A DNA stretch of 61,500 bases from an uncultured Acidimicrobiia bacterium. Lineage in GTDB: Bacteria; Actinomycetota; Acidimicrobiia; Spongiisociales; UBA4744. Numbering within the stretch: the stretch's first letter is position 1; each line of letters starts with the position of its first letter. The DNA lies in assembly GCA_964383535.1 (NCBI GenBank), contig CAYLHS010000003.1, positions 1 through 61,500 on the forward strand. The letters are read 5' to 3'. Under the pieces are notes generated by a model. The model had not been told where the DNA came from, did not search any database, and saw only the letters and a program-made list of their open reading frames with translations. Position numbers and translations under genes: made by a program. Positions 5,058-56,923 of this stretch are shown piece by piece.

Positions 5058-5146
5058 TTCGATCGAGGTCGTCAGCCATCAGCCGCGACATGGCCGAGCC
5101 ACAAGAACGATCCTCCCCCCAGTGCGCCCCCGGGACAGACTGGGCT

Positions 5147-5926
5147 TCACGAACCCTGCCACACGGGTGGTCGCTTCTCCTTGAACGCGGCGACGCCCTC
5201 GGCCGCGTCCTGGGTGGTGCAGAGGGCGGCAAATGCTCCGTTCATGTACGACATCGCGCTGCCAAACGCGAGATCGGCGGCCGCGTAGAAGGATGTCTTC
5301 GCTGACCGCAGCGCGACCTGGCTCTTCTCGGCGAGCTTCCGCGCCCAAGCCCTTGTCTCTTCCTCGAGAGCATCGTCCGGGACGACACGGTTGATCAGTC
5401 CGATCTCGGCGGCGGTAGCAGCCGAAATCAGCTCACCGAAGTAGAGCAGCTCGAGCGCCTTCTTTCGTCCCACCGAGCGCGACACCGGAATGACCGGACC
5501 AACACAGTTGAGGCCAACGTTGATCGCCGTCAACCCGAACCTGGCGCTTTCGGCCGCGACGGCGAGGTCCGCAGCGGCAACGGTGCCCGCACCATTGGCG
5601 ACTGCGACCCCGTGAACCTGAGCGATGATGGGTTTGGAGATCGCCATCATCGTCGCCAGCGGACGCTCCATGAGATCGGTCCACGCGCGGTACTCCTGCT
5701 CCGACTTGCCGGGGAACTCGTCGAGGTCGATGCCAGCGCAGAAGACCCTTCCGGCACCACGCAGGATGATCGCGTGCACGAGCCGTTCTCCGTCAAGTTG
5801 CCTCAGCGCAGCATCGAACTGGGAGGCGAGCGGGGTGTTGAACGTATTGAGCTTGTCAGGACGGTTCAGGGTCAGGATCCCGACGGCATCCTCGCCGACC
5901 TCGACAGACACGACGTCGAACTCCAC
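5147..5926 (-). CDS. Enoyl-CoA hydratase/isomerase family
   Basis: [34 protein letters not shown] start placed after a GGGAGG SD. Confidence 0.88.
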
Positions 5927-6031
5927 GGCTTCCTCCCGACTCGACAATCGGCTCACCCTACCGCGCCCCAGCAGCCCCTCACCGGTGTCCCCCGAGCGCG
6001 AGTCATCTACCATCCCGGGAAGGAGGCCTGC

Positions 6032-6586
6032 GTGATCTTTTCAGACCGAACGATCAAGGAAGCGCTCACCGCTGGGCGCATCGTCATCGACCCATTCGAC
6101 GAGTCCTTCGTGCAACCGTCGAGCGTAGATCTTCGCGTCGATCGGTTCTTCAGAGTCTTCGAGAACCACCGGTACCCGCAGATCGACCCCAAGCAGCCGC
6201 AAGACGACCTGACCACCTTGGTGGAGACCTCGGACAACGATCCGTTCATTCTGCATCCAGGGGAGTTCGTGCTCGGATCCACGCTGGAACGAGTCGGTCT
6301 CGGCGATGACGTCGTCGCCCGTCTCGAAGGCAAGTCCAGCCTCGGCAGGTTAGGTCTGCTCATTCATTCGACCGCTGGGTTCGTCGACCCGGGTTTCGAC
6401 GGCTATCTCACGCTCGAGTTGTCCAACGTCGCCAAGCTCCCAATCGCCATCTATCCGGGCATGAAGATCGGACAGATCTCGTTCTACGAGCTCACGACAC
6501 CCGCAGAGCACCCCTACGGCGAGGCGGGCGGCAAATACCAAGGTCAGCGGGGGCCGACCCCGAGCAGAATTCATCAGGACTTCTAG
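6032..6586 (+). CDS. dcd: dCTP deaminase
   Basis: [48 protein letters not shown] 6032 after AGGAGG. Confidence 0.93.
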
Positions 6587-6590
6587 AGGG

Positions 6591-6680
6591 CGGTTTCCTC
6601 CCCAGCGAGGCGGTGAGGGCCGAGTGTTGGGGGAGGTGGCCGAAGCAAAGCCGAGGACGGAGGGGGCGGTGCCCACCAAC
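6591..6680 (+). repeat. REP-like palindromic element, copy A
   Basis: CGGTTTCCTCCCCAGCGA...GAGTGTTGGGGGAGGTGG...GCCGAGGACGGAGGGGGCGGTGCCCACCAAC; the last 31 nt match 13589-13619 at 30/31. Confidence 0.8.
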
Positions 6681-6727
6681 GTAGCCGGCCGAAGTTACAT
6701 CAAGTCCCGCCAGGCAAGTGCGCTACC

Positions 6728-6755
6728 GAGAACCGCGAACCAACGACCAGAACAG
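6728..6755. repeat. Heptamer-phased tract
   Basis: GAGAACC GCGAACC AACGACC AGAACAG, ending at the surE stop. Confidence 0.55.
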
Positions 6756-6756
6756 A

Positions 6757-7524
6757 TCACACATCCAGCTTCACTGCATGGGCCAGTCGTACCTGTGTGA
6801 TGGACACCAGTCCCTTGGCAACCGCCTCGACATCCGTACCCGCCAGATCACCCCGCACCCGCAGGCCGGTCGAGAAGTCATGGATGAACACGTCGGGTCG
6901 TATCTCGCGAAAGATCCGGTCGTAGCCCGTTTTCGCGAGGTCGGTGAATACCCGCGGTGTATCGACGGTGGCGTTCGTATCGAAGTTCACGTTCAGCAGG
7001 TCGACGCCCTCTGGGAACCCGTCGCGTCGCACCGTCGTGACGATATCGGCGCTCACGCCGGCAGCCCTCGGCCACAGATCGGCCTCCTCGCCTGCCCACA
7101 CACGCTCCGACCAGCCCCGATGGTCCCGGGTCACGCCCGTAGAGAACGCGAGTGCCGGAATTCCGGCGATCCAGCCCTCCGCTGCTGCACCAGCGGTTCC
7201 GCTCGATAGAAAGAAGGCGAGACTGTCGTTGAGTCCGACGTTGATCCCCGACACCACCATGTCGGGAGCCTCGCCGAAGAGAGAGTGCACGCCAAGTTGG
7301 GTGCAGTCGGCCGGAAACCCGTCGGCAACGGCTATCTCCATCCCCTCGCGCACGACCCGCGTCACCCTGATCTCACCGAAGCGGGTGATGGCCTTTCCGA
7401 TCCAGCTCCGCTCCCGATCCGGAACCACGACTCTCACATCGGTGATCTCACGCAACGCCCTCATGAACGGCAACAACGCAGGGGAGTCGACACCGTCATC
7501 ATTGGTCACCAGTAGGTATCCCAT
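6757..7524 (-). CDS. surE: 5'/3'-nucleotidase SurE
   Basis: LLVTNDDGVDS, PDRERSWIGKAIT, GFPADC, VVSGINVG, SSGTAGAA; start set at MGYLLV (7524), not the track start at 7770. Confidence 0.9.
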   Translation of the reverse strand: MGYLLVTNDDGVDSPALLPFMRALREITDVRVVVPDRERSWIGKAITRFGEIRVTRVVREGMEIAVADGFPADCTQLGVHSLFGEAPDMVVSGINVGLNDSLAFFLSSGTAGAAAEGWIAGIPALAFSTGVTRDHRGWSERVWAGEEADLWPRAAGVSADIVTTVRRDGFPEGVDLLNVNFDTNATVDTPRVFTDLAKTGYDRIFREIRPDVFIHDFSTGLRVRGDLAGTDVEAVAKGLVSITQVRLAHAVKLDV

Positions 7525-7548
7525 CGCCGGCACAGGGTACCCGGAACG

Positions 7549-7580
7549 CCAGGAACCCCCGGTATCCCGGGGGTTCCTGG
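7549..7580. terminator. Perfect 14-bp hairpin (U-tail-less terminator candidate)
   Basis: CCAGGAACCCCCGG-tatc-CCGGGGGTTCCTGG. Confidence 0.6.
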
Positions 7581-7754
7581 AGTCCTCGGCGAGTTGGAGG
7601 AAGGGGGGACTCCGTTGTGCTCTCTTCGAGGACGCTGCCGGAGTAGACATCGGCAGAACAGCCACGAGACTTGAGGCGTTCACGAAGCACCCCCAGCCGG
7701 GAGGGAGTGGCTGAGGGTGCTTGCGTTCGAACTCGCCAGGGTGCCCAGCGGAAT
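7549..7754 (-). ncRNA. Candidate structured RNA (Ms1/6S-like architecture) or long structured leader
   Basis: Own promoter, closing stem 7730-7740 with 7584-7595, internal hairpins, and a 14-bp terminal hairpin; see findings. Confidence 0.5.
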
Positions 7755-7760
7755 GGCCCA

Positions 7761-7789
7761 ATTCTATCATGAGGACGTTATTACCCCAA
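7761..7789 (-). promoter_or_regulatory. Sigma-A type promoter with extended -10
   Basis: Minus strand TTGGGG-17 bp-TAGAAT, with TG-n immediately before the -10. Confidence 0.6.
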
Positions 7790-7879
7790 TGCTCCTGGCC
7801 AGGCAGCTACTTATGCTGGAAGGCACGTCTCGTCAGAAGTGAGTAGCGAGATCAGACATCATTCTGATAGAGTTTGGTT

Positions 7880-8824
7880 ATGCTCAATCCGAGAGAACTC
7901 CAGATCTTCCTCGCAGCAGCCGAAACCGAGAACTTCTCTGAAGCCGCCCGCCGGCTGAACATCTCACAACCGGCCATCTCGATGCAGATCAGGTCGCTCG
8001 AAGAGAAACTGGACATGCCGCTCTTCACGCGGACGGGAAGGCAGGTGACCCTGACGGACTCGGGCCGGGTTCTGGTCCCCATGGCGCGAGACGTCATCGA
8101 TAACACCATCCGTCTCGAAGAGGCGATGGCTTCGCTTCAAGGTGACGTTGTCGGGGTTCTCAAGCTCGGTTGCAGTACCGCCGCCGGCAAGTACGTGGTC
8201 CCTCGGTTGATGGCTGGCTTCCACACTCGCTACCCAAAAGTCGGACTCGTGTGCGATGTCTCTGGCCGGCGCGAAGCACTCCAAAGGCTGCGTGATGGAG
8301 AAGTACTCCTCGCGATGACGAGTCTCCGTGAACCGTACAAGGGCATCGAGTACCGGCCATTCCTGACAGATCGAATCGTCCTGATCGTTCCGCCAGATCA
8401 TCCATGGGCGGCGCTGGAGAGACCGCTGAAGCCGAAGGAGTTGCTGTCGGGCCAGTTCATTCTTCGTGAGTCCATGTCCGGAACTCGATCCGCCGTTGCG
8501 GAAGGGCTTTCGTGGCACGACATGTCCCTCGACGATCTCGAACGCGTCATGGTGCTCGGCAACTCGGAAGCGATCTGTGCAGCCGTGCAGGAGAAGATCG
8601 GCGTTGCGTTCGTCTCGACGTCCGTCGCTTGCGAAGCCACCAAGGCCGGCACGGTGGTCCCCGTGTCCATCGACGGCATGGATCTGACGACCACCCTCTA
8701 TCTAGCTCGCGACACCGACCGGCCGGCGACGCGCTCGCAGGCCGCATTCTGGGAGTTCGCGTTCGCGCCGGAGAACGAACACATCCGCACCAGGCCGAGC
8801 CTGCCAGCAGATCGAATCTGCTGA
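7880..8824 (+). CDS. LysR family transcriptional regulator (CysL/CmpR-like)
   Basis: LQIFLAAAETENFSEAARRLNISQPAISMQIRSLEEKLDMPLFTR HTH plus substrate-binding domain. Confidence 0.92.
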   Translation: MLNPRELQIFLAAAETENFSEAARRLNISQPAISMQIRSLEEKLDMPLFTRTGRQVTLTDSGRVLVPMARDVIDNTIRLEEAMASLQGDVVGVLKLGCSTAAGKYVVPRLMAGFHTRYPKVGLVCDVSGRREALQRLRDGEVLLAMTSLREPYKGIEYRPFLTDRIVLIVPPDHPWAALERPLKPKELLSGQFILRESMSGTRSAVAEGLSWHDMSLDDLERVMVLGNSEAICAAVQEKIGVAFVSTSVACEATKAGTVVPVSIDGMDLTTTLYLARDTDRPATRSQAAFWEFAFAPENEHIRTRPSLPADRIC

Positions 8825-8828
8825 TCGG

Positions 8829-9680: not shown

Positions 9681-9689
9681 GCCGATCCG

Positions 9690-9790
9690 GGTTCTCAGTT
9701 GTCGGTTCTCAATTGTCGGCAGGAGGCTCGCCCCACGACCCGCGCTGCCACAGCGATGCCACCAGAAGCGAGAACCGACGACCGACAACG
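9690..9790. repeat. Inverted heptamer-arm element
   Basis: Left arm GGTTCTC AGTTGTC GGTTCTC AATTGTC; right arm GAGAACC GACGACC GACAACG (reverse-complement type). Confidence 0.7.
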
Positions 9791-9797
9791 AGGGGTA

Positions 9798-10943
9798 TCA
9801 GCCCCTCCTGAAGATGGCTGCGGCCCCCATGCCTCCGCCGATGCACATGCTCACAATGCCGTACTCGACGTCCCGACGCCTCATCTCGTGCAGCAGCGTC
9901 GCAGTGAGCTTGGCGCCGGTGCACCCCAGCGGGTGGCCGAGTGCAATCGCCCCACCGTTGACGTTCACCTTCTCGGGGTCGATGCCGAGCTCGCGTACGC
10001 AGTAGACGGCCTGGCTGGCAAAGGCCTCGTTCAGCTCGATGAGGCCGATATCGTCGAGGGACATCCCGGCTGCCTTGAGTGCTTTCGGAATGGCGACCGA
10101 CGGTCCGATGCCCATGATCGCCGGGTCCACCCCCGCAACCTGGAACGTGATGAGCTCCCCGAGCGGTTCGAAGCCCAGCTCGCTCGCTCGCTCCTTCGTC
10201 ATGAGAAGCTCGATGGCCGCGCCGTCGGACATCTGCGACGAGTTGCCTGCCGTCGATGTCCCGTTGACCTTGAACGCAGGCCTCAGCTTCGCGAGCCCGT
10301 CCAAGGTGCTCTCACGGGGCCCGTCGTCCGTGTCATACGTGAATTCCCTCCCGTCTGCTCGAACGGTCACCGGAATGATCTCATCGACGAACCTGCCCGC
10401 CTGCTGCGCAGCGACGGCCCGTCGCTGCGACTCGAGCGCAAAGCGGTCCTGCTCTTCTCGGCTCACGCTGAAGCGCTCGGCGACGTTCTCGCTGGTCATC
10501 CCCATCGACTCGTAGGCAGTGGGCATGTGCTCGGCCAGCCACGGGTTCGGCGCCGGCTTGTTGCCGCCCATGGGGACCATGGTCATCGACTCGACTCCGC
10601 CCGTCAGCACGATGTCAGAGAAGCCGGCGGAGATGTGCGCTGCCCCGGTCGCGAGCGTCTGCAGTCCGGAGCTGCAGAAGCGGTTCATCGTCATGGCCGG
10701 CGTCTCGAACGGGATGCCTGCCCTGAGCGCCGCGATCCTGCCCACGTTCATCCCCTGCTCACCTTCCGGCATGGCACATCCGATGATCACATCGTCGATC
10801 GACGCTGGATCGAGCTCGGGGGTGCGCTCCAGGAAGCCTTGGATGAGCAAGGCAAGCAGCTCATCGGGTCGGGTCTCTCGTAGCGACCCTTTGTACGCTT
10901 TGCCGACCGCTGTCCGGTAGGCGTGGGTGACGACAACGCTCAT
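9798..10943 (-). CDS. fadA: Acetyl-CoA C-acyltransferase (thiolase)
   Basis: [43 protein letters not shown]. Confidence 0.93.
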
Positions 10944-10958
10944 GTGTTTCTCGCTTCC

Positions 10959-13346
10959 CTAGTTCCTCAGTGGTTTGCCGGTAGCCAGCATGTGCTGGAT
11001 TCGTTCGATCGTCTTCTCCTCGTGGCACAGCTCGAGGAACACCTCGCGCTCGAGGTCGAGCATCTCCTGTTCGGTGCGTTCGGTGCCCTGGGGAACGTCG
11101 CCTCCGCAGATCACGTATCCGAGCCGGCCGGCGAGGTGCTGGTCGTACTCGCTGATATACCCTCCGCCCCGCATACCGTGAGCCGCCACCTCGATCGCCG
11201 CTATCCCGTCCGTTCCCGGCACCTTCACGGTGCATGGCCGCGGCGGCCTGTAGCCACCGTCGACAAGAGCCAGTACGTCCTTCTTGGCGGCGGCGAGCAG
11301 CGTGTCCGGGTTCAAGTGGACTTTGTCCGTCGGCCGCAGGTAGCCGAGGTCCCTGGCTTCCTCCGCACTCGTTGACACCGTCCCCAAGCCGATCGTCCTG
11401 AAGATCTTCTCCATGAACGGGAAGAGGTTTGCGTTGACGCCGGAAGGTACGCTGCCGTAGTGGCGGAAGGCCATCTCTTTGCACCCTCCGCCTGCGGGGA
11501 TCACTCCGACGCCTAGTTCGACAAGTCCCAGGTACGTCTCTGCGGACGCTCGCACGAGGTCGCCGTGCATGACCGCTTCGCAACCACCCCCGAGCGCCAT
11601 TCCCCGTGGGGCGATGACCACAGGGCCCTTGCAGTATTTCACCCTCATGTAGGCGTTCTGGATGCCGGCGACAGCCCCTTCGAGTTCGTCCCACATGTTC
11701 GACATGGCCAACATGCCGACGAGTCCGATGTTGGCCCCGACCGAGAAGTTGGCGGCTTCACTCCCCACGACGAGACCGACCAGCTCGCCGCTGTCGACCT
11801 TGTCCAATGCCGTGTTGAGCATCTCGATGATCTGCGCGTCGATCGAATTCATCTTGGTGTGGAACTCGACGAGCCCGACGCCATCGCCCATGTCGTAGAG
11901 CGTCGCGCCGTCGTTGTGCTCCATGGCCACGAGATCGGCGATCGTGACGATGCCCTCCATCCCCGGGGCAGGCAGGTACCCACTGGCGTTGACGTCCCAG
12001 TAGTGGAGGACACCGTTGCGTCGCACGTACCAGGTGCCGTCCGACTCTGCGAGCATCGTGTCGACGACGGTTGGCACCGCCATGCCTTCGTCTCGCATGC
12101 GCTTGACGGATGCTTCGACGCCAATGGCGTCCCATGCCTCGAACGGGCCGAGGTCGTAGTTGAAACCCCATCGAATCGCTCGGTCGATGTTGACGAGGTC
12201 ATCCGCGATGACTCCGAGCAGGTCGGCCGAGTAGATGCAAGTTTCGGCGGTCGTCTTCCACGCGAGCTGGCCGGCGACATCGTCGTACCAGACCATTTCG
12301 CGCACTCGGTCCCTGACATCGTCGAGGTTGCGGGCAGCCCCGATCGAGTCGTAGCGCACCTTTGGCTGCGATTCATACTCCAACGTGTCGAAGTTCAGAA
12401 CAAGGATCTCGCTGCGTCCGTCGGCGCCACGGGTCTTCTTGTAGAAGCCGGCGCCGGTCTTCTGACCGAGGTCGCCCCGCTCCACGAGTGCTTCCAGGAC
12501 GGCCGGGGGGGCGAATCGTTCGCGCCACGGATCGTCGTCGGAGCCGTCAGCGATGGTACGCAGCACGTGAACCATCGTGTCGAGTCCAACCACATCTGAC
12601 GTGCGGAAGATGGCCGACTTGGGGCGGCCCATGGCAGGGCCGAGGATCTTGTCGACTTCGGTTACGCCCAGCCCGAGTTCCGACATCCAGTGGAATGCCG
12701 AGGTCATGGCGAACGTGCCGATGCGGTTGCCCACGAAATTGGGGGTGTCTTTGCCATAGACGATGCCCTTGCCGAGAACATCCGAGCCGAAGTCGGCCAT
12801 CGCTGCCAGGACATCGGGGTCGGTGTCGACGCTCGGCACCAGTTCGAGCAGGTGCAGGTAGCGGACCGGGTTGAAGAAGTGGGTGACGAGGAAGTTGCGC
12901 CGGAAGTCGTCGCTTCTCCCTTCTGCCATGGCCGCCACCGACAGACCCGAGGTGTTGGAGGAGACGATCGTCCCCGGTGTGCGGTGTTCGTCGACCATGG
13001 CGAACACCTTCTGTTTGATGTCTAGCCGCTCCACGACTACTTCGACGATCCAGTCGACTTCGCCCAGCTTGTCGATGTCGTCCTCGTAGTTGCAGGCGGT
13101 CACAAGGGGTGCGAGGTCCTTGCGGTACAGCAGCGCAGGCTTGGCTCGCTGCATCGACTCCAGCCCCGCGTTCGAGATGCGGTTTCGCACGTCGGCGAGT
13201 GTGAGACCCTTCGCCTTCTCGGCGTCGGTCAGCTCACCCGGTGCGATGTCGAACAGGTAGGAGGGGATGCCTGCGTTTGCGAGCTGGGCGGCGATGCCCT
13301 GCCCCATGACTCCCGATCCCAGTACTGCCACTCGGCTGATGCCCAT
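10959..13346 (-). CDS. 3-hydroxyacyl-CoA dehydrogenase / enoyl-CoA hydratase fusion (FadN type)
   Basis: VAVLGSGVMGQGIAA Rossmann motif, SSNTSGL, HFFNPVRY, NFVGNRIG; C-terminal crotonase domain (FSVGANI, GMALGGGCE). Confidence 0.92.
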   Translation of the reverse strand: MGISRVAVLGSGVMGQGIAAQLANAGIPSYLFDIAPGELTDAEKAKGLTLADVRNRISNAGLESMQRAKPALLYRKDLAPLVTACNYEDDIDKLGEVDWIVEVVVERLDIKQKVFAMVDEHRTPGTIVSSNTSGLSVAAMAEGRSDDFRRNFLVTHFFNPVRYLHLLELVPSVDTDPDVLAAMADFGSDVLGKGIVYGKDTPNFVGNRIGTFAMTSAFHWMSELGLGVTEVDKILGPAMGRPKSAIFRTSDVVGLDTMVHVLRTIADGSDDDPWRERFAPPAVLEALVERGDLGQKTGAGFYKKTRGADGRSEILVLNFDTLEYESQPKVRYDSIGAARNLDDVRDRVREMVWYDDVAGQLAWKTTAETCIYSADLLGVIADDLVNIDRAIRWGFNYDLGPFEAWDAIGVEASVKRMRDEGMAVPTVVDTMLAESDGTWYVRRNGVLHYWDVNASGYLPAPGMEGIVTIADLVAMEHNDGATLYDMGDGVGLVEFHTKMNSIDAQIIEMLNTALDKVDSGELVGLVVGSEAANFSVGANIGLVGMLAMSNMWDELEGAVAGIQNAYMRVKYCKGPVVIAPRGMALGGGCEAVMHGDLVRASAETYLGLVELGVGVIPAGGGCKEMAFRHYGSVPSGVNANLFPFMEKIFRTIGLGTVSTSAEEARDLGYLRPTDKVHLNPDTLLAAAKKDVLALVDGGYRPPRPCTVKVPGTDGIAAIEVAAHGMRGGGYISEYDQHLAGRLGYVICGGDVPQGTERTEQEMLDLEREVFLELCHEEKTIERIQHMLATGKPLRN

Positions 13347-13436: not shown

Positions 13437-13492
13437 AGACAGCTCACAGCTGTTCAGCTGTTCGGCTATACAGCAGTCGCCTCCAGCCTCCA
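13437..13492. repeat. Heptamer/octamer-phased tract
   Basis: AGACAGC TCACAGC TGTTCAGC TGTTCGGC TATACAGC, then GCCTCCA x2. Confidence 0.5.
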
Positions 13493-13531
13493 GGAAGACG
13501 CGACCATATCTCTCGCGAGACCGCTGGCCGA

Positions 13532-13619
13532 CGGTTTCCTCCCCCAGCGAACGACGTGAGCGTTGGGGGAGGTGGACTCGGCCGTCAGGCCGAGGACGGA
13601 GGGGGCGGTTCCCACCAAC
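13532..13619 (+). repeat. REP-like palindromic element, copy B
   Basis: CGGTTTCCTCCCCCAGCGA...GAGCGTTGGGGGAGGTGG...GCCGAGGACGGAGGGGGCGGTTCCCACCAAC. Confidence 0.8.
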
Positions 13620-13625
13620 CGGGAT

Positions 13626-14780
13626 CTACCTACAGGAAGGTTGGGCTTCCAGCCAGGCGAGTGCGGCATCGAGAACGCGGTCGCCACTGTCGGTCGGCAG
13701 GACGGCAACCAGCTGGTCCGGGACGATGGGACCGTCGTAGAGGCTACCGAGACGATCCTGCGCCTCACCGCCGGTGATCACGATCGTCGATCCGTCGGCG
13801 AGCAGGACCGGAGCATTGCCCGTGGGTACGCCGTAGCTGCTCGTGGAGCCGAACGTTCGGGTGCCGGGTCGCCCCAGAAACGCCACCAGGACACCCTCAC
13901 TGGCGCTGGCGGTGCCGTAGGAGATGAGCACCGCCACAGGGGCATCAGAGTCATGCACGACGTAGGGATCTGTAACCACCGACGCCTCCTTGGTCGCCTC
14001 GACCAGGGCGGAAGGGGAACCGGCCGGAGTCTCAATACCGACGAACGGCGCACCGTTGACATACAACAGGCCGTCCTCATAGCTGAACTCCCCGTGTGCA
14101 GCAGGCCCAACGTACGAGAGGAACGTCCCAGATCCGAGCAGGGGTGCAACGGCCAACAAGAACGGCTCGATGGTCTCCCCACCGGTGGTTCGCAGGTCGA
14201 CCACCCATCCACACACCGGGTCCGTCTCGTCGGCTGCACGCAACAAGCTTTGGACCTGGGTCGCGTAGGTGGTCCACTGATCCGACAGGACGCCAGGCAG
14301 GGGAGTGAGCACCACCTCCCCGATCGCAGCTCCCGTATCCAACTCGATGCGGCCGCCATACGGCGGGTCAGTGTGCACCACTGTCCCGAGCGAAGCCTCC
14401 TGGTACGGCCGAAGGAACGTGTGGTTGGCACCCGTTGCTCGCAGGGCCTCGCGGATCGCCGTATAGGCGCCGACCTGGGATGGATTCGCTTCCACCAGGC
14501 CCATGGCGTCAGAACGTATCGGACCCCAATCGACCTCGTCCGTCTTGTAGTAGTACTCCTCGGCCAAGTCGATCGCGTCGGCCACATACGCCACCCAGTC
14601 GATCCCAGACGTCGTCGAGGTGACCGCTGTGGTGCTGGTTGTCGCGGCCGACCCGGTCGTCGTAGGCGCCCTTGTGGACGAGGCTGGGTGGTTCACGCAT
14701 GCGGCGAGTATGCACACCAGCCAGCAGCACAGAAGAACTACACCACGCCTGGTCGACACTTCGGACCGAAGGCTACTCAC
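13626..14780 (-). CDS. S41 family peptidase, predicted lipoprotein
   Basis: LAAC lipobox, Thr-rich linker, VVDLRTTGG, VAVLISYGTASASE. Confidence 0.75.
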   Translation of the reverse strand: MSSLRSEVSTRRGVVLLCCWLVCILAACVNHPASSTRAPTTTGSAATTSTTAVTSTTSGIDWVAYVADAIDLAEEYYYKTDEVDWGPIRSDAMGLVEANPSQVGAYTAIREALRATGANHTFLRPYQEASLGTVVHTDPPYGGRIELDTGAAIGEVVLTPLPGVLSDQWTTYATQVQSLLRAADETDPVCGWVVDLRTTGGETIEPFLLAVAPLLGSGTFLSYVGPAAHGEFSYEDGLLYVNGAPFVGIETPAGSPSALVEATKEASVVTDPYVVHDSDAPVAVLISYGTASASEGVLVAFLGRPGTRTFGSTSSYGVPTGNAPVLLADGSTIVITGGEAQDRLGSLYDGPIVPDQLVAVLPTDSGDRVLDAALAWLEAQPSCR

Positions 14781-14815
14781 TGGAGAATCGACCTGGTGAC
14801 TTATGCCAGCCGAAA

Positions 14816-14844
14816 GCGGTACGCGGTACGAAGGTACCAGGTAC
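14816..14844. repeat. Heptamer-phased tract after dnaB
   Basis: GCGGTAC GCGGTAC GAAGGTAC CAGGTAC. Confidence 0.6.
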
Positions 14845-14867
14845 GGGCGCAGCCTTCGGGCTGCGCT

Positions 14868-16232
14868 CTACACCACATCCCGGCCGAGGTCGGAGAACAG
14901 CGTGAACTCGGGAAGGAACGTCATCTGCACCATGCCGGTCGATCCGCTTCGATGCTTCGCCACAATCACTTCCGCCAGCCCTTTCGCGTCCTGAGCCTCC
15001 GGGTGGTAGTACTCGTGGCGGTAGATGAACATGACGATGTCGGCATCCTGTTCGATAGCCCCCGATTCCCGCAAGTCGCCCAGGCGAGGGCGCTTGTCCT
15101 CTCGTGATTCCAGACTGCGGTTCAGCTGCGAAACGGCGAGGATCGGCACGTCGAGTTCTCGCGCGAGGTTCTTCAACGATCGTGATATCTCTGCGATCTC
15201 CTGTTGACGATTCTCTCTCGCCAAACCCTGCATGAGTTGGAGGTAGTCGATGATGATCAGCTGGAGGCCGTGAGCTCGTCGCAGACGTCGGCTCTTCGCA
15301 CGAATGTCGGTGACGGTGAGCTGCGGCGAGTCGTCGATGTACACCGGAATCTGATACATCTTGGACGCAGCATGAACGACCTTCTGCCACAGCTGCGGCC
15401 CGAGCTGCCCCGTGCGGAGCTTCATCGAGTCGACTCTGCCGGTGGAGCACAGCAGACGCTGCACGATCTCCTCTCTGCTCATCTCGAGTGAGAAGATCGC
15501 CACGGTGCCACCGGTCATGGCCACGTTCGTCGCGATGTTGGACACGAGCGTGCTCTTTCCCATTGACGGACGAGATGCCACGACGACGAGGTTGGCCGCC
15601 TGAAGGCCACCGAGCTTCTTGTCGAGGTCTCTGAAGCCGGTCGCCAACCCCGTCAGCTCCGACCCGCGGGCTTCCATCTCTTCGATGGTCTCGAGCGCGC
15701 CGTGCAGAAGCGGGCTCATCGGCACGAGACCATCACCGACACGACGCTCTGCAACACGGAGAACTGTCTGCTCGGCCTGATCCAGGACCACCGAGATCTC
15801 CTCGTCCGTCATGATGGCGAGGTCTCCGAGCACCCCACCCGCATGGATGAGTCTTCGGCGGAGGCCGTGTTCCTCAACGATTCCCGCGTAGTACTCGATG
15901 TTCGACGCCGTCGGGACGGCGTCCATCACATCGGAGAGGTAGCCGGCGCCTCCGATCCGATCGAGTTCACCTTTTCGATGCAATGCATCGGAAACCGTCA
16001 GAGCGTCGATCGGCTGGTTTGCGTTGTACAGATCGACGATCGCTTCGAAGATCGCCTGGTGCGCTGGCACGTAGAAGTCGTCAGGCTCCAGCTTGTCCAT
16101 GACGAGGTTTGCGGCCTCGGCGGACAGCATGATCGCTCCCAGCACCGACTCCTCCGCCTCCCGGTTGTGAGGGGCGACCCGCATTCTGCGGACTGATCCG
16201 CTTGGTGCGGGCGAGGTGAGACGATCGGTCAT
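14868..16232 (-). CDS. dnaB: Replicative DNA helicase
   Basis: PHNREAEESVLGA, ASRPSMGKST, FSLEMS, IIIDYLQLM, DLRESGAIEQDAD; no intein. Confidence 0.96.
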   Translation of the reverse strand: MTDRLTSPAPSGSVRRMRVAPHNREAEESVLGAIMLSAEAANLVMDKLEPDDFYVPAHQAIFEAIVDLYNANQPIDALTVSDALHRKGELDRIGGAGYLSDVMDAVPTASNIEYYAGIVEEHGLRRRLIHAGGVLGDLAIMTDEEISVVLDQAEQTVLRVAERRVGDGLVPMSPLLHGALETIEEMEARGSELTGLATGFRDLDKKLGGLQAANLVVVASRPSMGKSTLVSNIATNVAMTGGTVAIFSLEMSREEIVQRLLCSTGRVDSMKLRTGQLGPQLWQKVVHAASKMYQIPVYIDDSPQLTVTDIRAKSRRLRRAHGLQLIIIDYLQLMQGLARENRQQEIAEISRSLKNLARELDVPILAVSQLNRSLESREDKRPRLGDLRESGAIEQDADIVMFIYRHEYYHPEAQDAKGLAEVIVAKHRSGSTGMVQMTFLPEFTLFSDLGRDVV

Positions 16233-17898: not shown

Positions 17899-18324
17899 TC
17901 ACGGAACCAGGACTGCGCCGGCCGGAAGTGCCGACAAGAGGCCGCCCCTCGGTGCTTCCACCGCCCACCGGTACGGGTCGGATGGTCCGTAAGTGGGGCA
18001 CGGATCTGACGCACAGATCGGCATGGTGAGTACGTCGATGAGCGTGCCATCACTCCTGAAGAATGCGATGTCCAGGGGCAGCAGCGTGTCCTTCATCCAG
18101 AAGCGGGTGGTCGTGATGTCGGAGAACTCGAACAGCATCCCGTCGACCCCGTCGATGGACGTGACGCCACCGAGGCCCTTCGCCTGCTGGGCGGAGGTCG
18201 ACGCGACCGCCACGGACAATGCCTGACCGTCGATGTCGATCTGTCGAACGGGGAACCCTTGCCAGTCGGTCGCCGACGGCGCGCAGCCAACGGCGATCAG
18301 CACCGCTATGAGAAGTGCCTTCAT
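17899..18324 (-). CDS. DUF192 domain protein
   Basis: GMLFEF...FWMKDTLLPLDIAF...CPTYGP...AVEAPRG. Confidence 0.85.
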   Translation of the reverse strand: MKALLIAVLIAVGCAPSATDWQGFPVRQIDIDGQALSVAVASTSAQQAKGLGGVTSIDGVDGMLFEFSDITTTRFWMKDTLLPLDIAFFRSDGTLIDVLTMPICASDPCPTYGPSDPYRWAVEAPRGGLLSALPAGAVLVP

Positions 18325-19784: not shown

Positions 19785-19911
19785 GGCACTTCAGGGACCG
19801 CAGTTCAGGTCGGGCCTCACATGCAGTAGCGCTCTCCGCGCCATCAGTCACCCTGGATCACCCCGGTGAAGGGCCGGCTGATCGAAGACGAGGTCTTCCC
19901 GAGGGCTCCGC

Positions 19912-21495: not shown

Positions 21496-22041
21496 ATGTT
21501 GGATCTCGCCATCCTCGGACTCCTGAAGGAGCAGCCTCGCCACGGCTATGACTTGCGGCACAGACTCAGTGAACTGGGTTTGCGCTCGGTCTCGTTCGGG
21601 TCGCTCTACCCGGCATTGAGAAGACTCGATCGCAATCACTTCATCGAGACGGTCGACGGCGCGCGCCGCAAGAAGGTGTACCGAATCACCACCACCGGCG
21701 AGGCGAGGTTCAAGGAACTCATCGAGCCCCGGACGACCGAAGATGAGGACGACCGATCGTTCAATCTTCGTGTCGCGTTCTTCAAGTACCTGGACCCCGA
21801 GCTTCGGCTTCGGCTCCTCGAGCGACGCAAGATGATCCTGTCGGATCGGGCCGACCAGGATCTGGCCCGTCTCCGCAGGACCAGGGAACGTATTGACCGA
21901 TACACGCTCTCGCTCATCGAGCGAGAAGCGAATCACACCGCGGCGGACATCGACTGGATCGACGAGCTGATCGCCACCGAGCAGGCCGCACTCCGTAGGC
22001 GCAAACCCACAATCGGACGACTGAAAAGGACGATCACATGA
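21496..22041 (+). CDS. PadR family regulator (Rv0047c-like, upstream of ino1)
   Basis: [37 protein letters not shown]. Confidence 0.9.
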
Positions 22042-23141
22042 GCACCATACGCGTTGCCATCGCCGGGCTCGGCAATTGCGCGAACTCCCTGATACAAGGA
22101 GTCGAGTACTACCGAGACGCCGACCCCTCCCAGTCGGTGCCAGGGCTCATGCATGTGGAGATGGACGGCTACCACGTTCGCGACCTGGAGTTCGTTGCAG
22201 CATTCGATGTCGACGCAACCAAGGTCGGCGTGGACATCTCGAAGGCGATGTGGAGCGGCCAGAACGACACCTACCGATTCGCCGATGTCGGCGCCACGGG
22301 AGTCGAGGTGCTCCGCGGGCCCACACTCGACGGGCTGGGCATCTACTACCACAAGACGATCGAGGAGTCGCCCGCCGAACCGATCGACGTCGCGGCGGCA
22401 CTCCGAGACTCTGAAGCAGACGTGCTCGTCAACTACCTTCCCGTTGGTTCCGAGCAGGCGGCCAGAGCCTATGCAGAAGCGGCTCTGGATGCCGGAGTTG
22501 CGCTCGTCAACTGCATTCCCGTGTTCATCGCATCCGACCGGACGTGGGCGCGGCGCTTCCGGGACGCGGGTCTACCCATCCTGGGTGACGACATCAAATC
22601 CCAGGTGGGTTCGACGATCGTTCACCGCCAACTCGCTCGCCTCTTCGAGGATCGCGGCCTCACGCTCGATCGCACCTACCAGCTGAATGTCGGCGGCAAC
22701 ATGGACTTCATGAACATGCTCGAGCGAGAGCGGCTCGAGTCCAAGAAGCTCTCCAAGACCAGGGCGGTCACGTCGCAGGTCGACCACGGGCTCTCGGACC
22801 GCAACGTTCACATCGGACCTTCCGACCATGTGCCGTGGCTCACCGACCGAAAGTGGGCATATATCCGTCTCGAGGGCACCGGCTTCGGCGATGTGCCCTT
22901 GAACGTCGAACTCAAGATGGAGGTCTGGGATTCACCGAACTCGGCCGGGGTCGTCATCGATGCGATCCGAGCGGCGAAGCTCGCCAAGGATCGCGGCATC
23001 TCGGGACCACTCCTCGGTCCTTCGGCCTACTTCATGAAGAGTCCGCCGGTCCAGTACAGAGACGAGCAGGCCAGGGGTTTCGTCGAGGAGTTCATTGCCG
23101 ACGGCGCAACCGAGCGCCTGCGCATCGACGGCTACCTGTAG
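22038..23141 (+). CDS. ino1: myo-Inositol-1-phosphate synthase
   Basis: [43 protein letters not shown]. Confidence 0.95.
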
Positions 23142-23159
23142 AGGCTCACTTCGTGAGCT

Positions 23160-23246
23160 GGGTTTTCGGTCATCGGTACCCGGGAATGGGCTCACTCCCC
23201 GGTGTGGCAGTACGTCCGGCCGCCATTTCGACTGAGGACTGAAGAC
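23160..23246. repeat. Heptamer-phased tracts between convergent ino1 and nfo
   Basis: GGGTTTT CGGTCAT CGGTACC CGGGAAT GGGCTCA and GACTGAG GACTGAA GAC. Confidence 0.45.
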
Positions 23247-23265
23247 GTGTGAGCGAAGGGAGCTC

Positions 23266-43461: not shown

Positions 43462-43624
43462 GCCGATGCTCTGTTCGGCGATGTCGGTGATGACCTAGGT
43501 GAGTCTCTGCCGATAGCAGGAACGCAGACGCACCCACGCACCCCTGGCGCTTCGAGGACGAGGACCGATCAGCGGCGGGTTCTCGCCGTTCTCATAGGGG
43601 TGCCGGCCGTGGCACCGGCGACCC

Positions 43625-48091: not shown

Positions 48092-48100
48092 GAACACGTG

Positions 48101-50746: not shown

Positions 50747-50793
50747 TTCCTCTCAGCACAAGGTGTATCGGCTCCGCGAGCGACTTCTTGACT

Positions 50794-51801: not shown

Positions 51802-51847
51802 GTCTCTACTTTGGCAGACGGGATAGAGGCCAGGGTACGATTGGGCG

Positions 51848-52573: not shown

Positions 52574-52611
52574 CGCTTGTAGTGTTCTGAGATCCGTCGA
52601 GAGGAGGCGAC

Positions 52612-53904: not shown

Positions 53905-54463
53905 CGAAGAACTCCTCTCCGGTTTCCTCGAAGGCGATCATGCAGCATTCGACGAGTTGATGACACGCCATGAAGACCGGATCTTCGGACTCTGCCTTCG
54001 GATGCTCGGCAGTCGTGAGGATGCGCTCGATGCCACTCAGGACACATTCCTGACGGTCTACCGGAAAGGTCGCCAGTACTCCGGTCGGTCGAGATTCTCC
54101 ACGTGGCTCTACAGGGTGGCGATCAACACGTGCCACGATCACCTCAGGAAGCGCAAACGCCACCAAGCAGTCCCCATACCGGAGGGATCCGACGTGCCCG
54201 ATCCCTCCGTCGGCGACCAGTTCACTTCGGTGGAACTGCGCCCCGATATTCTCACCGCACTCTCGTCGATACCCGAGGAGTTCAGAAGCGCGGTCGTATT
54301 CGTCGACATCGATGGTCTCGCCCTGGATGAGGTTGCAGACATCATGGGGGTACCGGTCGGAACCGTGAAGTCGCGCACCTACCGTGGTCGACGCCTCCTC
54401 GCCGAATTCCTCGGGAACTTCCGGGGCGTGTCGGAGCATCAAAGGGATGAAGACCATGCATGA
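53894..54463 (+). CDS. ECF RNA polymerase sigma factor (SigM-like position)
   Basis: DALDATQDTFL, FSTWLYRVAINTC, region 4 DEVADIMGVPVGTVKSRTYRGR; TTG start after GGAGAGG. Confidence 0.9.
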   Translation: MPSDEELLSGFLEGDHAAFDELMTRHEDRIFGLCLRMLGSREDALDATQDTFLTVYRKGRQYSGRSRFSTWLYRVAINTCHDHLRKRKRHQAVPIPEGSDVPDPSVGDQFTSVELRPDILTALSSIPEEFRSAVVFVDIDGLALDEVADIMGVPVGTVKSRTYRGRRLLAEFLGNFRGVSEHQRDEDHA

Positions 54464-55157
54464 CCATGACATCGACCGCATCGCCGCCGTGGCAGAAGAC
54501 CGCCTGTCGGGACAGGATCTCGCCGCTGCCCGAGTGGAGATCGACGCATGTGAGGAGTGCAGTCGCGAGCTGGAGGCACAGCGGACGGCGATCGCCTTCC
54601 TCGGGCAGGCTCAACCGGCCACCCTGACGTCCATCGAGCGTGCGCGGCTTCACCGGGCGATCCGTCCTGCCCCCACCCGGTCGCGGTGGGTGCGACTCGT
54701 GCCGGTCTTCGCGGCGGCCGCCGCCCTCGTCGTGGTTGCCGGCGTACTGCTGCCCAGGGGGACCGGCACTCCGGAAACGTTCCTGAACGCGGGCAAGGGC
54801 TTGGAGTACTCTCAGGAGTCCGATTCGGCCGGGGCTGCCCCACGAGCACCCGTCATGGGCTCTTCAACCACGGCCGCACGCGCGACCACCACGATGCCTG
54901 CGTCCGACGCGATGCTGGCCTCACCAACCCCGCTCTTCGCCACAGAAGCGGACGAGCTCAGAAAGAACCCACCCGCCGAGACAACCACCCTCTGCCAGGA
55001 CGAGGCTCGCGACCGCATGGACGAGGAACCGATCGCTGCACGTGAGATCGACTACAGCGGCACTCCGGCCGTCTTGTATGTGTACCCAAAGACGGCGCTC
55101 ATCTTCGAACAAGCAACCTGTGACTTCCTCGAGGAGATTCCCGCGGACAATCCCTGA
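54456..55157 (+). CDS. Anti-sigma factor-like membrane protein
   Basis: CEEC motif, single TM helix, extracytoplasmic tail; overlaps the sigma stop. Confidence 0.7.
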   Translation: MHDHDIDRIAAVAEDRLSGQDLAAARVEIDACEECSRELEAQRTAIAFLGQAQPATLTSIERARLHRAIRPAPTRSRWVRLVPVFAAAAALVVVAGVLLPRGTGTPETFLNAGKGLEYSQESDSAGAAPRAPVMGSSTTAARATTTMPASDAMLASPTPLFATEADELRKNPPAETTTLCQDEARDRMDEEPIAAREIDYSGTPAVLYVYPKTALIFEQATCDFLEEIPADNP

Positions 55158-55184
55158 GTCTTGTTCGCTATCCTCAGGAACTCA

Positions 55185-55469
55185 ATGGACGACATGCCTA
55201 CACGCTTCGCGGATTTCCTTGAGAACATCGCTACCAAGATCCGCTCGCTCACAATCGATCGCTTCGCCCGCGGGATGCGCCTTGCGCTCGCCGGGACCGT
55301 GGCAGCAACGCTTGCCCTGATCGCTCTCATCTTCCTGATCGTCTCGGTGTTCAGAGCCGTCTCGGTTCCCCTGACCGTGGAGGGCGCGTACGCGGCGTTC
55401 GGGGGACTATTCATCCTTGCCGGCGTGTTGGTCTGGTTGAAGCGGAAGCCCAAGGACGGCAATGACTGA
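55185..55469 (+). CDS. Small 2-TM membrane protein
   Basis: Two hydrophobic helices and a basic C-terminus; overlaps the trxB start. Confidence 0.55.
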
Positions 55470-56382
55470 AGACATCATCATCATCGGATCGGGCCCTGCC
55501 GGTCTGACTGCGGCGCTGTATGCCGCGCGTGGTGGCAACGATCCTCTCGTTCTGGAGGGAAGCCAGGCAGGCGGGCAGCTCATGCTCACCACCGAGGTCG
55601 AGAACTTCCCCGGGTTCCCGGACGGGCTTCTCGGTCCCGAACTCATGGACCGGATGCGCAAGCAGGCCGAGCGCTTCGGCGCTCGGATGCTCACTGTTGA
55701 TGTTTCAAAGGTCGAGCTGGACGCACACCCGTTCACGGTGTGGACGGGAGCAGATTCCTACACCGCCCGCTCAATCATCATCTCCACGGGTGCCTCCGCT
55801 ATGTGGCTCGGCATCCCTGGCGAGGAACGCCTTCGGGGCCGGGGTGTCTCGTCGTGCGCGACCTGCGACGGCTTCTTCTTTCGCAATCAGGAGATCGTCG
55901 TCGTTGGCGGCGGTGATACGGCAATGGAAGAGGCTCTCTTCCTCACCAGGTTCGCGTCGAAGGTGCACATCGTCCATCGCCGGGACGAGTTCAGGGCGTC
56001 GGCGATCATGGCCAAGCGTGCTGTCGAGCACCCAAACATCAACGTCATCTGGGACACCGTCCTCGAGGAGGTCCTCGGCGGCGACGAGGTCACGGCCGTC
56101 CGCATGCGCAACGTCAAGACGAACGAGGTATCCGAGATGCCGATCGGTGGCGTCTTCGTCGCTATCGGGCACAAGCCCAACACCGAGCTCTTTGCAGGAT
56201 CGCTCGACATGAATGACGTCGGTTACCTGATCTTGGAAGATGGGTCGACCGCTGCATCGATCGACGGTGTGTTCGCTGCCGGCGACGTCGCCGATCCCGT
56301 GTACCGACAGGCCATCACCGCCGCGGGCACAGGCGCCCGTGCCGCGATCGATGCTCGCCGGTGGCTGGAAACACACGAGTAG
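55462..56382 (+). CDS. trxB: Thioredoxin-disulfide reductase
   Basis: [46 protein letters not shown]. Confidence 0.96.
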
Positions 56383-56393
56383 GAGGCAGGCAG

Positions 56394-56711
56394 TTGGCCA
56401 ACATCACCGTCACCACCGACAACTTCGCCGAGGTCACAAACGGCGACGTCCCTATCCTCGTCGACTTCTGGGCCGAGTGGTGCGGGCCATGTCGCATGGT
56501 CGCTCCGATTCTCGATGACATCGCGAGTGAGCATCCCGACAAGATCCGAATCGGCAAGCTCAACGTCGACGAGCAACCGGCGCTTGCGGCGCAGCACGAC
56601 GTCATGAGCATTCCGACGATGATCCTGTTCCACGAAGGCAAGGAGCAGCGACGAATCGTCGGCGCCCGCCCGAAGCACGCGATGGAAGCCGAGCTCTCCC
56701 AGTTTCTCTAG
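56394..56711 (+). CDS. trxA: Thioredoxin
   Basis: DFWAEWCGPC, SIPT; TTG after AGGAGG. Confidence 0.95.
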   Translation: MANITVTTDNFAEVTNGDVPILVDFWAEWCGPCRMVAPILDDIASEHPDKIRIGKLNVDEQPALAAQHDVMSIPTMILFHEGKEQRRIVGARPKHAMEAELSQFL

Positions 56712-56732
56712 GCGAGCTTGGCCGGCAAGAAG

Positions 56733-56923
56733 GGTTCTCGCTCCTTGGTTCTCGGTGGGGTCTCGACCATCATCGCTTAGATTCCCTCCAGCCAGAGGCC
56801 ACCCAACCCCGGCCAGGGCCGCGTCCTGCATCGTCCGCTCCTTCATGGCCCGGGCCCCCGACCTCCAACCCCGCACCCGAGAACCGATCACGGAGGAGCC
56901 TCTCCTGCCGAGAACCGAGACCC
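56733..56923. repeat. Inverted heptamer-arm element between convergent trxA and parB
   Basis: Left GGTTCTC GCTCCTT GGTTCTC; right GAGAACC GATCACG GAGGAGC ... GAGAACC GAGACCC. Confidence 0.6.

Follow-up and report, generated by a model that had tools for sequence, protein, structure and literature searches.

Short degenerate heptamer arrays and a dispersed palindromic module at gene 3' ends in a clade of salt-marsh Acidimicrobiia

Results

Short, degenerate arrays of 7-nucleotide (nt) units recur behind the genes of an uncultured Acidimicrobiia bacterium, and we characterized them in positions 1 to 61,500 of contig CAYLHS010000003.1 (GenBank assembly GCA_964383535.1), hereafter the window, which denotes the whole 61,500-nt stretch that was analysed. 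The window has a G+C content of 63% and is approximately 90% coding and 10% intergenic. At its right end, trxB-trxA faces parB-parA-rsmG-jag-yidC-rnpA, a gene order indicating that the window adjoins the replication origin. The closest named proteins are those of uncultured Acidimicrobiia and window DNA is contained in salt-marsh metagenomes, so that the host, which a reading of the letters alone (the sequence-only reading) had called an actinobacterium, can be described as an uncultured member of the Acidimicrobiia from salt marsh. Comparison DNA consisted of syntenic sister-genome regions around parB and dnaB together with loci retrieved by DNA pattern (numbered L001 etc.). The sister metagenome-assembled genomes (MAGs) of the clade are CAWHCO01, CAZQMF01, and CAZWHZ01, and approximately 0.3 Mb of lineage DNA was sampled in all. 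A DnaB-based metagenome scan returned mostly distant phyla, which were used as controls; one locus discussed below, L045, came from there.

Tandem Repeats Finder and an exact-seed repeat search detected almost none of the tracts in the window because the units are degenerate, and lag statistics were therefore used instead, with mononucleotide shuffles as controls for the spacers. The six 35-nt segments with the highest lag-7 identity in the 61.5 kb (at 56853, 14804, 34028, 9686, 32423, and 6724) are all intergenic and all lie among the tracts that the sequence-only reading had listed. Lag-7 identity in the window spacers alone reaches z=2.6-2.9 against shuffles. When close relatives are added (126 spacers, 21 kb), z rises to 10.9 at lag 7, with 7.6 at lag 14 and 6.3 at lag 21, and the lag-7 signal separates by spacer type (convergent 14.2, tandem 6.8, divergent -0.3). 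Counted as stretches with at least 14/21 matches at lag 7, tracts are present in 30 of 118 gene-3' regions of the window and its close relatives, compared with 0.7 in shuffles, 0-3 for each of the other lags between 4 and 12 in the same regions, and 2/54 for divergent 5' regions. Comparison with shuffled controls had been set beforehand as the test by which a heptamer process could be refuted; the outcome was this clear excess (30 versus 0.7 tracts) and no refutation. The tracts are thus real and tied to gene 3' ends.

The main family, to which most tracts belong or which they resemble, is a dispersed palindromic module of 100-130 nt. Its layout is (GGTTNTC)x3-5, the junction GGTAAGAC, a variable core, TCYYACC, and (GANNACY)x3-4; the core measures 35-50 nt and has conserved ends (ACTCGCC... 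and ...GCGTTCYY). Right-arm units are reverse complements of left-arm units, with transitions that permit G.U pairs on the G/U-rich strand. The module stands only a few bases from stop codons, many arrays start 0-25 nt from a stop and fill the spacer up to the ends of the neighbouring genes, and the module ends in inverted arms, but the outer units fade and differ in number. Homologous junctions and core ends recur at approximately ten non-orthologous spacers, which bears out the earlier suggestion of a dispersed process. Among the relatives, nhmmer searches with the module profile matched the surE, polyA-polymerase, and dnaB spacers as well as L094, L101, L102 (three copies), and L104/L109. 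Some copies are tandem, as in the relatives' surE/dcd spacer, where a composite unit stands in two tandem copies, and some are fused to a second, unrelated repeat; in L004 the core is inverted relative to other module copies. At the polyA-polymerase spacer, a module is present in L001 and L004 but missing from the window. When 185,579 species genomes were scanned with the pattern GGTNNTNGGTTNTCGGTAAGAC, 12 matches were found in the three sister MAGs, and the 9 single matches in other phyla compare with approximately 17 expected by chance. One orthologous copy, c2, shows 2-5% divergence, compared with 23-33% at codon position 3 and 11-17% in average spacers, and the sequence adjoining it is much more diverged as judged by eye; such low divergence points either to constraint on the module or to its recent homogenisation. 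Whether GGTTNTC runs in the sense direction of the upstream gene proved uninformative as a signal, as a palindromic layout reads alike on both strands.

The tracts of the window and the gene segment that two of them bound are as follows.

9688 to 9792 (unstranded): module A, complete, between convergent EamA-like (+) and thiolase (-) genes; left arm 9690-9717 (GGTTCTC AGTTGTC GGTTCTC AATTGTC), junction GGCAGGA 9718-9724, core 9725-9769, right arm 9770-9790 (GAGAACC GACGACC GACAACG)
23158 to 23258 (+): full-length but diverged module following the stop of gene 22038-23141; left arm GGTTTTC GGTCATC GGTACCC from 23161, right arm GACTGAG GACTGAA 23230-23243
56732 to 56925 (unstranded): composite B, between trxA (+) and parB (-); outer arms GGTTCTC N7 GGTTCTC 56733-56753 and GAGAACC GAGACCC 56910-56923, with an extra GAGAACC at 56879
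6721 to 6755 (-): left arm only, directly behind the surE stop; CTGTTCT GGTCGTT GGTTCGC GGTTCTC, then a junction-like GGTAGCG
14816 to 14844 (-): GTAC-type array behind the dnaB stop (14868); CGTACCT GGTACCT TCGTACC GCGTACC
34035 to 34069 (+): array between convergent amidase (+) and DUF4388 (-) genes; GGCTGTC GGTTGTC CGCCGTC AGCTGTT
32436 to 32477 (+): right-arm-type array upstream of the amidase gene start; GGAGACC GGGGACT AGCGACT GGACACT CACGACC
13437 to 13492 (unstranded): mixed short-period tract between the S41-like gene and the fadB-like start; CAGCTGTT twice at period 8 and GCCTCCA twice at period 7
13451 to 14821 (-): S41-peptidase-like gene segment (Pfam S41 match) between dnaB and the fadB-like gene, bounded by two tracts
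43578 to 43593 (+): weak tract, GGTTCTC GCCGTTC TC, about two units of the family type; spacer z=0.09
5071 to 5084 (+): two units, GTCAGCC ATCAGCC; chance level, spacer z=-0.07
19788 to 19808 (+): non-adjacent units, ACTTCAG N7 AGTTCAG, without a tandem array; chance level, spacer z=-1.9

All eleven tracts of the sequence-only reading were found in the letters where it had placed them, but three (5071-5084, 19788-19808, and 43578-43593) are at chance level when taken alone and 13437-13492 is of mixed period. Its location claim, that the tracts lie in convergent spacers or behind stops, agrees with eight of the eleven, which lie in spacers called convergent, and with 14816-14844, which lies right behind the dnaB stop; the spacer of 6728-6755 is convergent too once dcd is called on the + strand. 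The tract at 13437-13492 begins at least 134 nt past the stop of the S41-like gene and stands just ahead of the fadB-like gene start, and that at 32436-32477 stands ahead of a gene start, approximately 420 nt past the preceding stop. The units were also read correctly: GGTTCTC/GGTTGTC and their complements predominate, while GGTAC-type and GACTGAR-type units are present too.

Module A (9690-9788) matches nearly the full module profile (nhmmer E=2.5e-7). Its spacer has a lag-7 z of 3.9, it folds at -46 to -51 kcal/mol (z of about -2), and its read depth is not raised in salt-marsh DNA runs. The diverged copy is preceded by a small hairpin (GCTCAC-TTC-GTGAGC, 23144-23158) and matches model positions 12-99 over 23158-23246 (E=0.0012); the folding energy is -55 kcal/mol on the + strand (z=-2.5), where the pairing of the arms includes G.U pairs, and -41.9 kcal/mol on the - strand. 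Composite B carries a module-like junction, GGCAGGAGAGGCTCC, on the - strand, and its ends (56733-56927) give a weak profile match (E of about 3). Within it, a C-rich heptamer run at 56853-56894 (GGGTGCG GGGTTGG AGGTCGG GGGCCCG on the - strand) is the top lag-7 segment of the whole window; read on the - strand, these G-run heptamers resemble the quadruplex-prone G-rich heptamers of Xanthomonas. For the single arm behind surE, a weak profile fragment was obtained at 6711-6748 (E=0.76), and the arm continues into an unrelated high-copy repeat in an arm-plus-repeat order matched at L102 5743-5877. An 8-bp hairpin (approximately 14846-14867) separates the dnaB stop from the GTAC-type array, and GTAC-type arrays behind hairpins also occur in the relatives' parB and thiolase spacers. 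The array at 34035-34069 matches at 21/35 positions at lag 7 (spacer z=2.8) and that at 32436-32477 at 20/35; a partner arm for the latter was not found.

The second dispersed repeat, of approximately 90 nt (CCGCCCCCTCCGTCCTCGGC ... CCACCTCCCCCAACRCTC ... GCTGGGGGAGGAAACCG), lies at 6590-6700 and 13500-13600 (- strand reading) in the window and at L102 5743-5877. It contains a strong hairpin (CCTCCCCCA/TGGGGGAGG) and is fused to the left arm of the heptamer module. Its depth in salt-marsh DNA runs is 30-40x that of its flanks, which marks it as high-copy. A parS-like palindrome, GTTTCACGTGAAAC, was also noted at approximately 59236 in the rsmG/jag region beside parAB.

Between relatives, the period is conserved more than the sequence, as had been proposed, and orthologous spacers in sister genomes hold arrays of quite different units. 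In the thiolase/EamA spacer, the arms of the window are of the GGTTCTC type, whereas L087 and L089 have GTACNNN arrays, L088 has CAGCAAA x4 facing RGCTGTC x4, and L090 has CAGTCYC and GCTGGCY x4. Likewise, the parB/trxA spacer has GGTTCTC arms in the window and a terminator-like hairpin with GTAC-type arms in relatives, and it is 14 nt (two units) longer in L004 than in L001. A GGCTGTG array counts 4, 5, and 2 units in three sisters. In the 5-25 nt size range, spacer insertions and deletions (indels) are conspicuous at 7 nt (5 events), 14 nt (5), and 21 nt (1), all of them whole units, while none of 13 or 15 nt was seen; these are counts from pairwise comparisons, with some events counted in more than one pair. 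Change by whole heptamers between relatives is what the sequence-only reading's heptamer-generating process would lead one to expect. Across the lineage DNA sampled, GGTTNTC/GANNACY prevails and coexists with GTACNNN, CAGCAAA, and GCTGGCY units. Among three Acidimicrobiia loci with a DnaB of 85, 75, and 69% identity, no convincing lag-7 tract was seen: two lack one altogether, and at the last there is one G-rich tract, of unexamined context. The tracts are thus a trait of one genus-level clade of salt-marsh Acidimicrobiia. At L088 15343-15377, a right-hand array (GGCTGTC AGCTGTC x2) and the EamA-like gene overlap at the 3' end that was called for the latter, and the array has apparently been absorbed into the coding region.

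Gene content also changes at these places. The S41-like gene is missing in four sister genomes and in some salt-marsh contigs. In contigs from salt-marsh runs X3 and X4, position 13450 is joined to 14822 with 40 other letters between them, which makes the gene a presence/absence variant with break points in the 13437-13492 and 14816-14844 tracts. In L087, L088, and L089, the dnaB to fadB-like spacer (11318-11731, 414 nt) shows 4-5% divergence compared with 20-34% at synonymous sites. It contains a module-like start, a GGCTGTG array, GACTGAA x2, and a hairpin, and the S41-like gene segment replaces it in the window. Separately, L087 18427-19262 holds a gene for a lipoprotein-like protein of 197 amino acids with no Pfam match and with terminal inverted repeats of approximately 30 bp (TTYGGCRGCAAGGTGAGATRGMATGTGTATGA). 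This gene is bordered by a 14-bp duplication (CTCACCGATGACTG), sits inside a GATGACT array between two module copies, is absent from L088 and L089, and looks like a transposase-less insertion cassette; its product was considered as a transposase for the modules on either side and was ruled out as one, being lipoprotein-like.

A 3'-end structural signal, which the sequence-only reading had offered as one meaning of the arrays, found little support: the arms can pair, yet folding z values are modest, covariation is lacking, and the hairpin-plus-U-tract arrangement of a terminator is missing. Nothing in Rfam matched at gathering scores. Between 5000 and 24900 of the window, no hairpin-plus-U-tract terminator was found at a gene end (5 pattern matches compared with 8.3 in shuffles, all inside genes), and short perfect G+C hairpins with loops of 3-4 nt stand behind several stops. 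The arrays have 2-4 T per unit without a T-run, and a small hairpin accompanies an array in 10 regions compared with 7.4 expected, which is no significant association. Arrays serving as U-tract substitutes behind terminator hairpins were ruled out on this account and because U-richness is not shared by the other types of unit. A structured-RNA reading of the module was likewise rejected (arms-only consensus fold, no covariation), as were the arms as a selected stem, given that complementarity at the variable positions shows no excess. Position 5 of the units is usually mismatched between arms, and on the G/U-rich strand G.U-compatible mismatches number 54 compared with 28 C.A mismatches. In salt-marsh metatranscriptome contigs, trxA is sparsely covered, too thinly to show 3' ends. 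The modules are not canonical terminators.

Heptamer arrays enclosing a gene were found elsewhere. At L045 (67% G+C, unrelated phylum), the inverted arrays (NNGAACT)x7 and (AGTTCNN)x4 enclose a gene for a 139-residue protein that matches TIGR02436, "four helix bundle protein" (E=1.5e-19), and PF05635 (E=7e-15). A reference set of 18 independent PF05635/TIGR02436 loci from at least seven phyla was assembled from L045, seven distinct viral-collection contigs, eight plasmids (Nostoc, Anabaena, Planktothrix, Treponema, Bernardetia, Chondrinema, Chlorohelix, and Monoglobus), and two metagenome contigs. With a flanking tract defined as at least 15/21 matches at lag 7 within 130 nt of the gene, arrays stand beside the gene at 18/18 loci, on both sides at 16 and on one side at the other two; the pairs are inverted at 14 loci, direct at 3, and ambiguous at 1. 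Beside the gene there are 36 tracts per 5.6 kb, elsewhere 12 per 54 kb, and lag 7 alone is raised. A tblastn search of plasmids with four-helix-bundle proteins gave no actinobacterial example. The units vary from locus to locus, and here too the arrays fill spacers up to the ends of neighbouring genes. In 50 kb of the Nostoc plasmid pNPUN02, the sole strong heptamer arrays are the two beside the four-helix-bundle gene, which argues that arrays travel with the gene and are not a pre-existing target. L143 (Vicinamibacterales) has a gene-bearing pair plus a gene-less inverted array with one shared unit, and the high-G+C units (NNGAACT, AGAACTT, GGTTCAT) share a GGTTC/GAACC core with the GGTTCTC of the window. 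The sequence-only reading had linked heptamer arms with four-helix-bundle genes and asked whether fuller versions enclose a small gene elsewhere. They do, with PF05635/TIGR02436 genes lying between arrays at 16 of 18 loci; no such gene was seen in the window or in the lineage sample of approximately 0.3 Mb.

Four-helix-bundle genes were also found wedged into operons, namely cas2|cas1, helicase|N6-methylase, hsdS|hsdR, RND adaptor|permease, and RhuM-like|hsdR (L125, L129, L130, L131, and L133). Wedging of this kind, as at cas2|cas1, may account for the CRISPR-Cas association that has been reported for the family (PMC3936711). Gene-less heptamer arrays were observed in the DnaB controls as well. 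The unrelated bacterium of L035 has them at 9866-9960, 15780-15890, and 18105-18159, and L027, which looks like a heterocystous cyanobacterium with the classic units of short tandemly repeated repetitive (STRR) sequences, has nine arrays in 21 kb. The arrays of these controls include inverted pairs that begin at a stop codon, for example TAA (GGTCCAG)x3 ... (CTGGACC)x3 and (GGTTCAT)x3 ... (ATGAACC)x3.

Discussion

To our knowledge, there is no accepted reason for the period of seven or for the origin of heptamer arrays, and the four-helix-bundle proteins encoded in rRNA intervening sequences are no better understood, save for the one relative that assists a reverse transcriptase. The tracts described here are clade-specific, are tied to gene 3' ends, and change by whole units. 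The explanation that we prefer, with a probability of roughly 55%, is that these short degenerate arrays, a trait of the clade, are gene-less copies of a heptamer-armed element class, grown by slippage and with the module spread by copying. Replication slippage would grow and shrink the arrays and is the likely driver of the unit changes, while the modules would likely be spread through copying, given the homology of junction and core from locus to locus. The modules themselves would represent the gene-less form of the element class whose heptamer arms enclose a PF05635/TIGR02436 gene; we give this kinship of the window modules with four-helix-bundle elements about one chance in three. The host would see a long imperfect hairpin at transcript 3' ends, which may be tolerated there and kept out of promoter spacers. 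It is possible that this hairpin protects or ends transcripts, but such a role would not be required to explain the presence of the module.

Several observations weigh against this explanation. The search for a gene in the lineage was negative: hmmsearch with a 39-sequence profile found no PF05635-like frame among all frames of at least 30 amino acids in the window and the sampled lineage loci, so that the link to gene-bearing elements rests on architecture and the likeness of unit cores. Copies matching the exact pattern are few, at 3-5 per genome. Comparisons of filled with other spacers revealed neither a target-site duplication nor sharp element ends, and the salt-marsh population shows no heptamer-sized length variants (metagenome DNA runs, at least 92% likeness). 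The presence together of unrelated unit families fits a general heptamer-making process as well as it fits several element families. The folding results are no more favourable. With RNAalifold, 13 arm pairs gave 0 compensatory changes, no core structure, and no consensus fold beyond the arms; paired units are complementary at variable positions 4-5 in 42/78 cases compared with 46.4 for permuted partners, which is no excess; and folding z values range from +1.6 to -2.5 against shuffles.

The arrays may instead be a pure mutational by-product, in which the replication of this clade slips by 7 nt and arrays arise in place in the unconstrained DNA behind genes, with no element and no function. Many unrelated units with one period in a single clade, whole-unit indels, the fast turnover of orthologous spacers, and the abrupt beginning of the signal within Acidimicrobiia would all follow, and secondary accounts rank heptamers first in over-representation among the long simple repeats of many bacteria (PMC4679880, PMC4692102). 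However, arrays arising in place would not be expected to bring the same junctions (GGTAAGAC, TCYYACC) and core ends to approximately ten non-orthologous spacers, nor to keep the order GGTTNTC then GANNACY almost always; c2 exceeds synonymous sites in conservation by a factor of five to ten, next to sequence that drifts, and slippage alone leaves one gene family between arrays at 18 loci unexplained. We therefore consider a pure by-product rather unlikely. A selected 3'-end signal that evolved in place (a terminator without a U-tract, an exonuclease block, or sites for cold-shock protein, S1, or Rho) is also unlikely in our view, though less so. The restriction of arrays to spacers containing a 3' end, with divergent spacers going without, speaks for it, as do the many arrays 0-25 nt behind stops, often past a small G+C hairpin, the conservation of c2, the preponderance of G.U-compatible over C.A mismatches (54 to 28), and a region without canonical terminators in which such a signal could serve instead. 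Yet the G.U excess is owed largely to related copies, there is no covariation and only a modest folding z, and hairpins and arrays are not significantly associated (10 versus 7.4). Moreover, GTACNNN, CAGCAAA, and GCTGGCY units, which are not U-rich, occupy the same positions, and a sequence-specific binder could not tolerate the swaps of unit family seen at orthologous spacers.

An ordinary miniature inverted-repeat transposable element (MITE), or a repetitive extragenic palindrome (REP) or its paired form (REPIN), moved by a transposase or a REP-associated tyrosine transposase (RAYT) elsewhere in the genome, would reduce the phasing to the make-up of terminal repeats. Such an element would suit the small size, the extragenic position, the inverted arms, the tandem copies, and the mosaics formed with another repeat of high copy number, and also the presence/absence between relatives (the polyA-polymerase spacer, filled in L001 and L004 and not in the window). 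We nevertheless regard it as quite improbable given the low copy number, the lack of a target-site duplication and of defined termini, and the fact that neither a transposase nor a RAYT was seen in the sampled lineage DNA; tandem 7-mer arms are also not a feature of described REPs or MITEs. As for chance, or pattern-seeking in G+C-rich spacers, three of the eleven listed tracts are indeed at chance level and Tandem Repeats Finder misses most of them, but z values of up to 14, 30 tracts where 0.7 are expected, and the prominence of lag 7 and its multiples alone make this almost inconceivable.

On the widest form of the element explanation, which we regard as tentative and on balance doubtful, STRR sequences, the GGGAATC repeats of Xanthomonas, TAACTGA repeats, and the arrays of the window would all be arms or gene-less remnants of a single class of small selfish elements, widespread and so far undescribed. 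The full element would comprise a heptamer array, a four-helix-bundle gene, and an inverted array, and it would wedge into spacers, operons, and rRNA helices. The PF05635 family also includes the Avd protein of diversity-generating retroelements. A Xanthomonas four-helix-bundle member forms a pentameric ring in a structure cited by PMC4990558. It is conceivable, as a speculation that belongs to the same doubtful proposal, that such a pentamer reads about five 7-nt units per arm, which would account for the period as well as for the usual length of the arrays.

Whichever explanation holds, arrays that are short and degenerate are missed by repeat finders and found by lag-7 scans, and they mark spots of fast turnover in gene gain and loss, such as those of the S41-like gene and of the lipoprotein gene in a relative. 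The near-perfect co-occurrence of array and gene, set beside a clade that has only gene-less module-like arrays, turns two puzzles into one testable question. No statement of a general association between heptamer arrays and four-helix-bundle genes was found in the papers searched, and it may be on record elsewhere.

Comparison with known systems

Intrinsic terminators share with the arrays a position directly behind stops, and G+C-rich stem-loops often stand beside the arrays; terminators, however, have a U-run, and none follows the arrays of the window. REPs are single palindromes of 20-40 nt with hundreds of copies, a RAYT gene, and no 7-nt phasing. By contrast, the window modules are phased at 7 nt and have 3-5 exact-pattern copies per genome, with no RAYT seen in the sampled DNA. 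What they have in common with the REPs, bacterial interspersed mosaic elements, and REPINs of proteobacteria (for REPINs, see Bertels and Rainey 2011, PMC3116915) is that they are extragenic palindromes behind genes or between convergent genes, with mosaics and hairpin potential.

Heptanucleotide repeats, including cyanobacterial STRR sequences, have been on record since 1990 with their function unexplained (Mazel 1990, as cited in PMC4692102 and PMC4679880). Secondary accounts of Mrazek 2007 state that, in many bacteria, among them some Actinobacteria, no long simple repeats are more strongly over-represented than heptamers (PMC4679880, PMC4692102), count three Actinobacteria among the heptamer-richest genomes of that time (PMC4692102, PMC4679880), and give polymerase slippage as the proposed cause (PMC4679880). 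The likeness to STRR sequences that the sequence-only reading had drawn is a sound one, since both are tandem 7-nt noncoding units whose number differs between relatives; as far as these accounts go, a sporadic spread and length variation attributed to slippage are shared as well. The arrays of the window differ in being short (3-5 units) and degenerate, in comprising several unit families, and in that junction and core sequences that are conserved accompany the main family and make it a composite module.

The closest positional parallel is provided by the GGGAATC repeats of Xanthomonas and the GGGGAYT repeats of Nostoc (Rehm et al. 2015, PMC4692102). These are approximately 90% intergenic, lie a mean of 28 nt from the end of the upstream gene, consist mostly of four units, form 70-75 convergent inverted pairs per genome, are rare between divergent genes, vary in length and sequence at orthologous sites, and number approximately 185 per genome. 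Nearly every positional trait is common to the window arrays. However, the Xanthomonas and Nostoc units are G-rich and form quadruplexes, which GGTTNTC cannot, numbers in the window clade look lower, and no conserved junction or core is described for those repeats. The TAACTGA direct repeats of Beggiatoaceae, cyanobacteria, and Bacteroidetes, whose patchy spread suggests transfer (MacGregor 2015, PMC4679880), have an ACTGA core resembling the GACTGAR units of the window. They stand just upstream of start codons and are direct, with one inverted case, whereas the window arrays stand behind stops, mostly as inverted pairs.

Finally, the 23S rRNA intervening sequence of Coxiella carries an S23p gene of the PF05635 family and 2-3 GACAGAT heptamers, whose number varies by strain and which lie in a 28-bp inverted-repeat stem (PMC4990558). 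The 23S intervening sequences of Coxiella and Leptospira thus resemble the window modules as hairpin elements with varying tandem heptamers and a 28-bp stem equal to 4 x 7, and bacteria have both gene-bearing and gene-less forms of them. They differ in that they sit in rRNA helices and are excised by RNase III, whereas the window elements sit in protein-gene spacers and are without a reading frame. To the known class of heptamer repeats, the arrays of this clade add a conserved junction and core.

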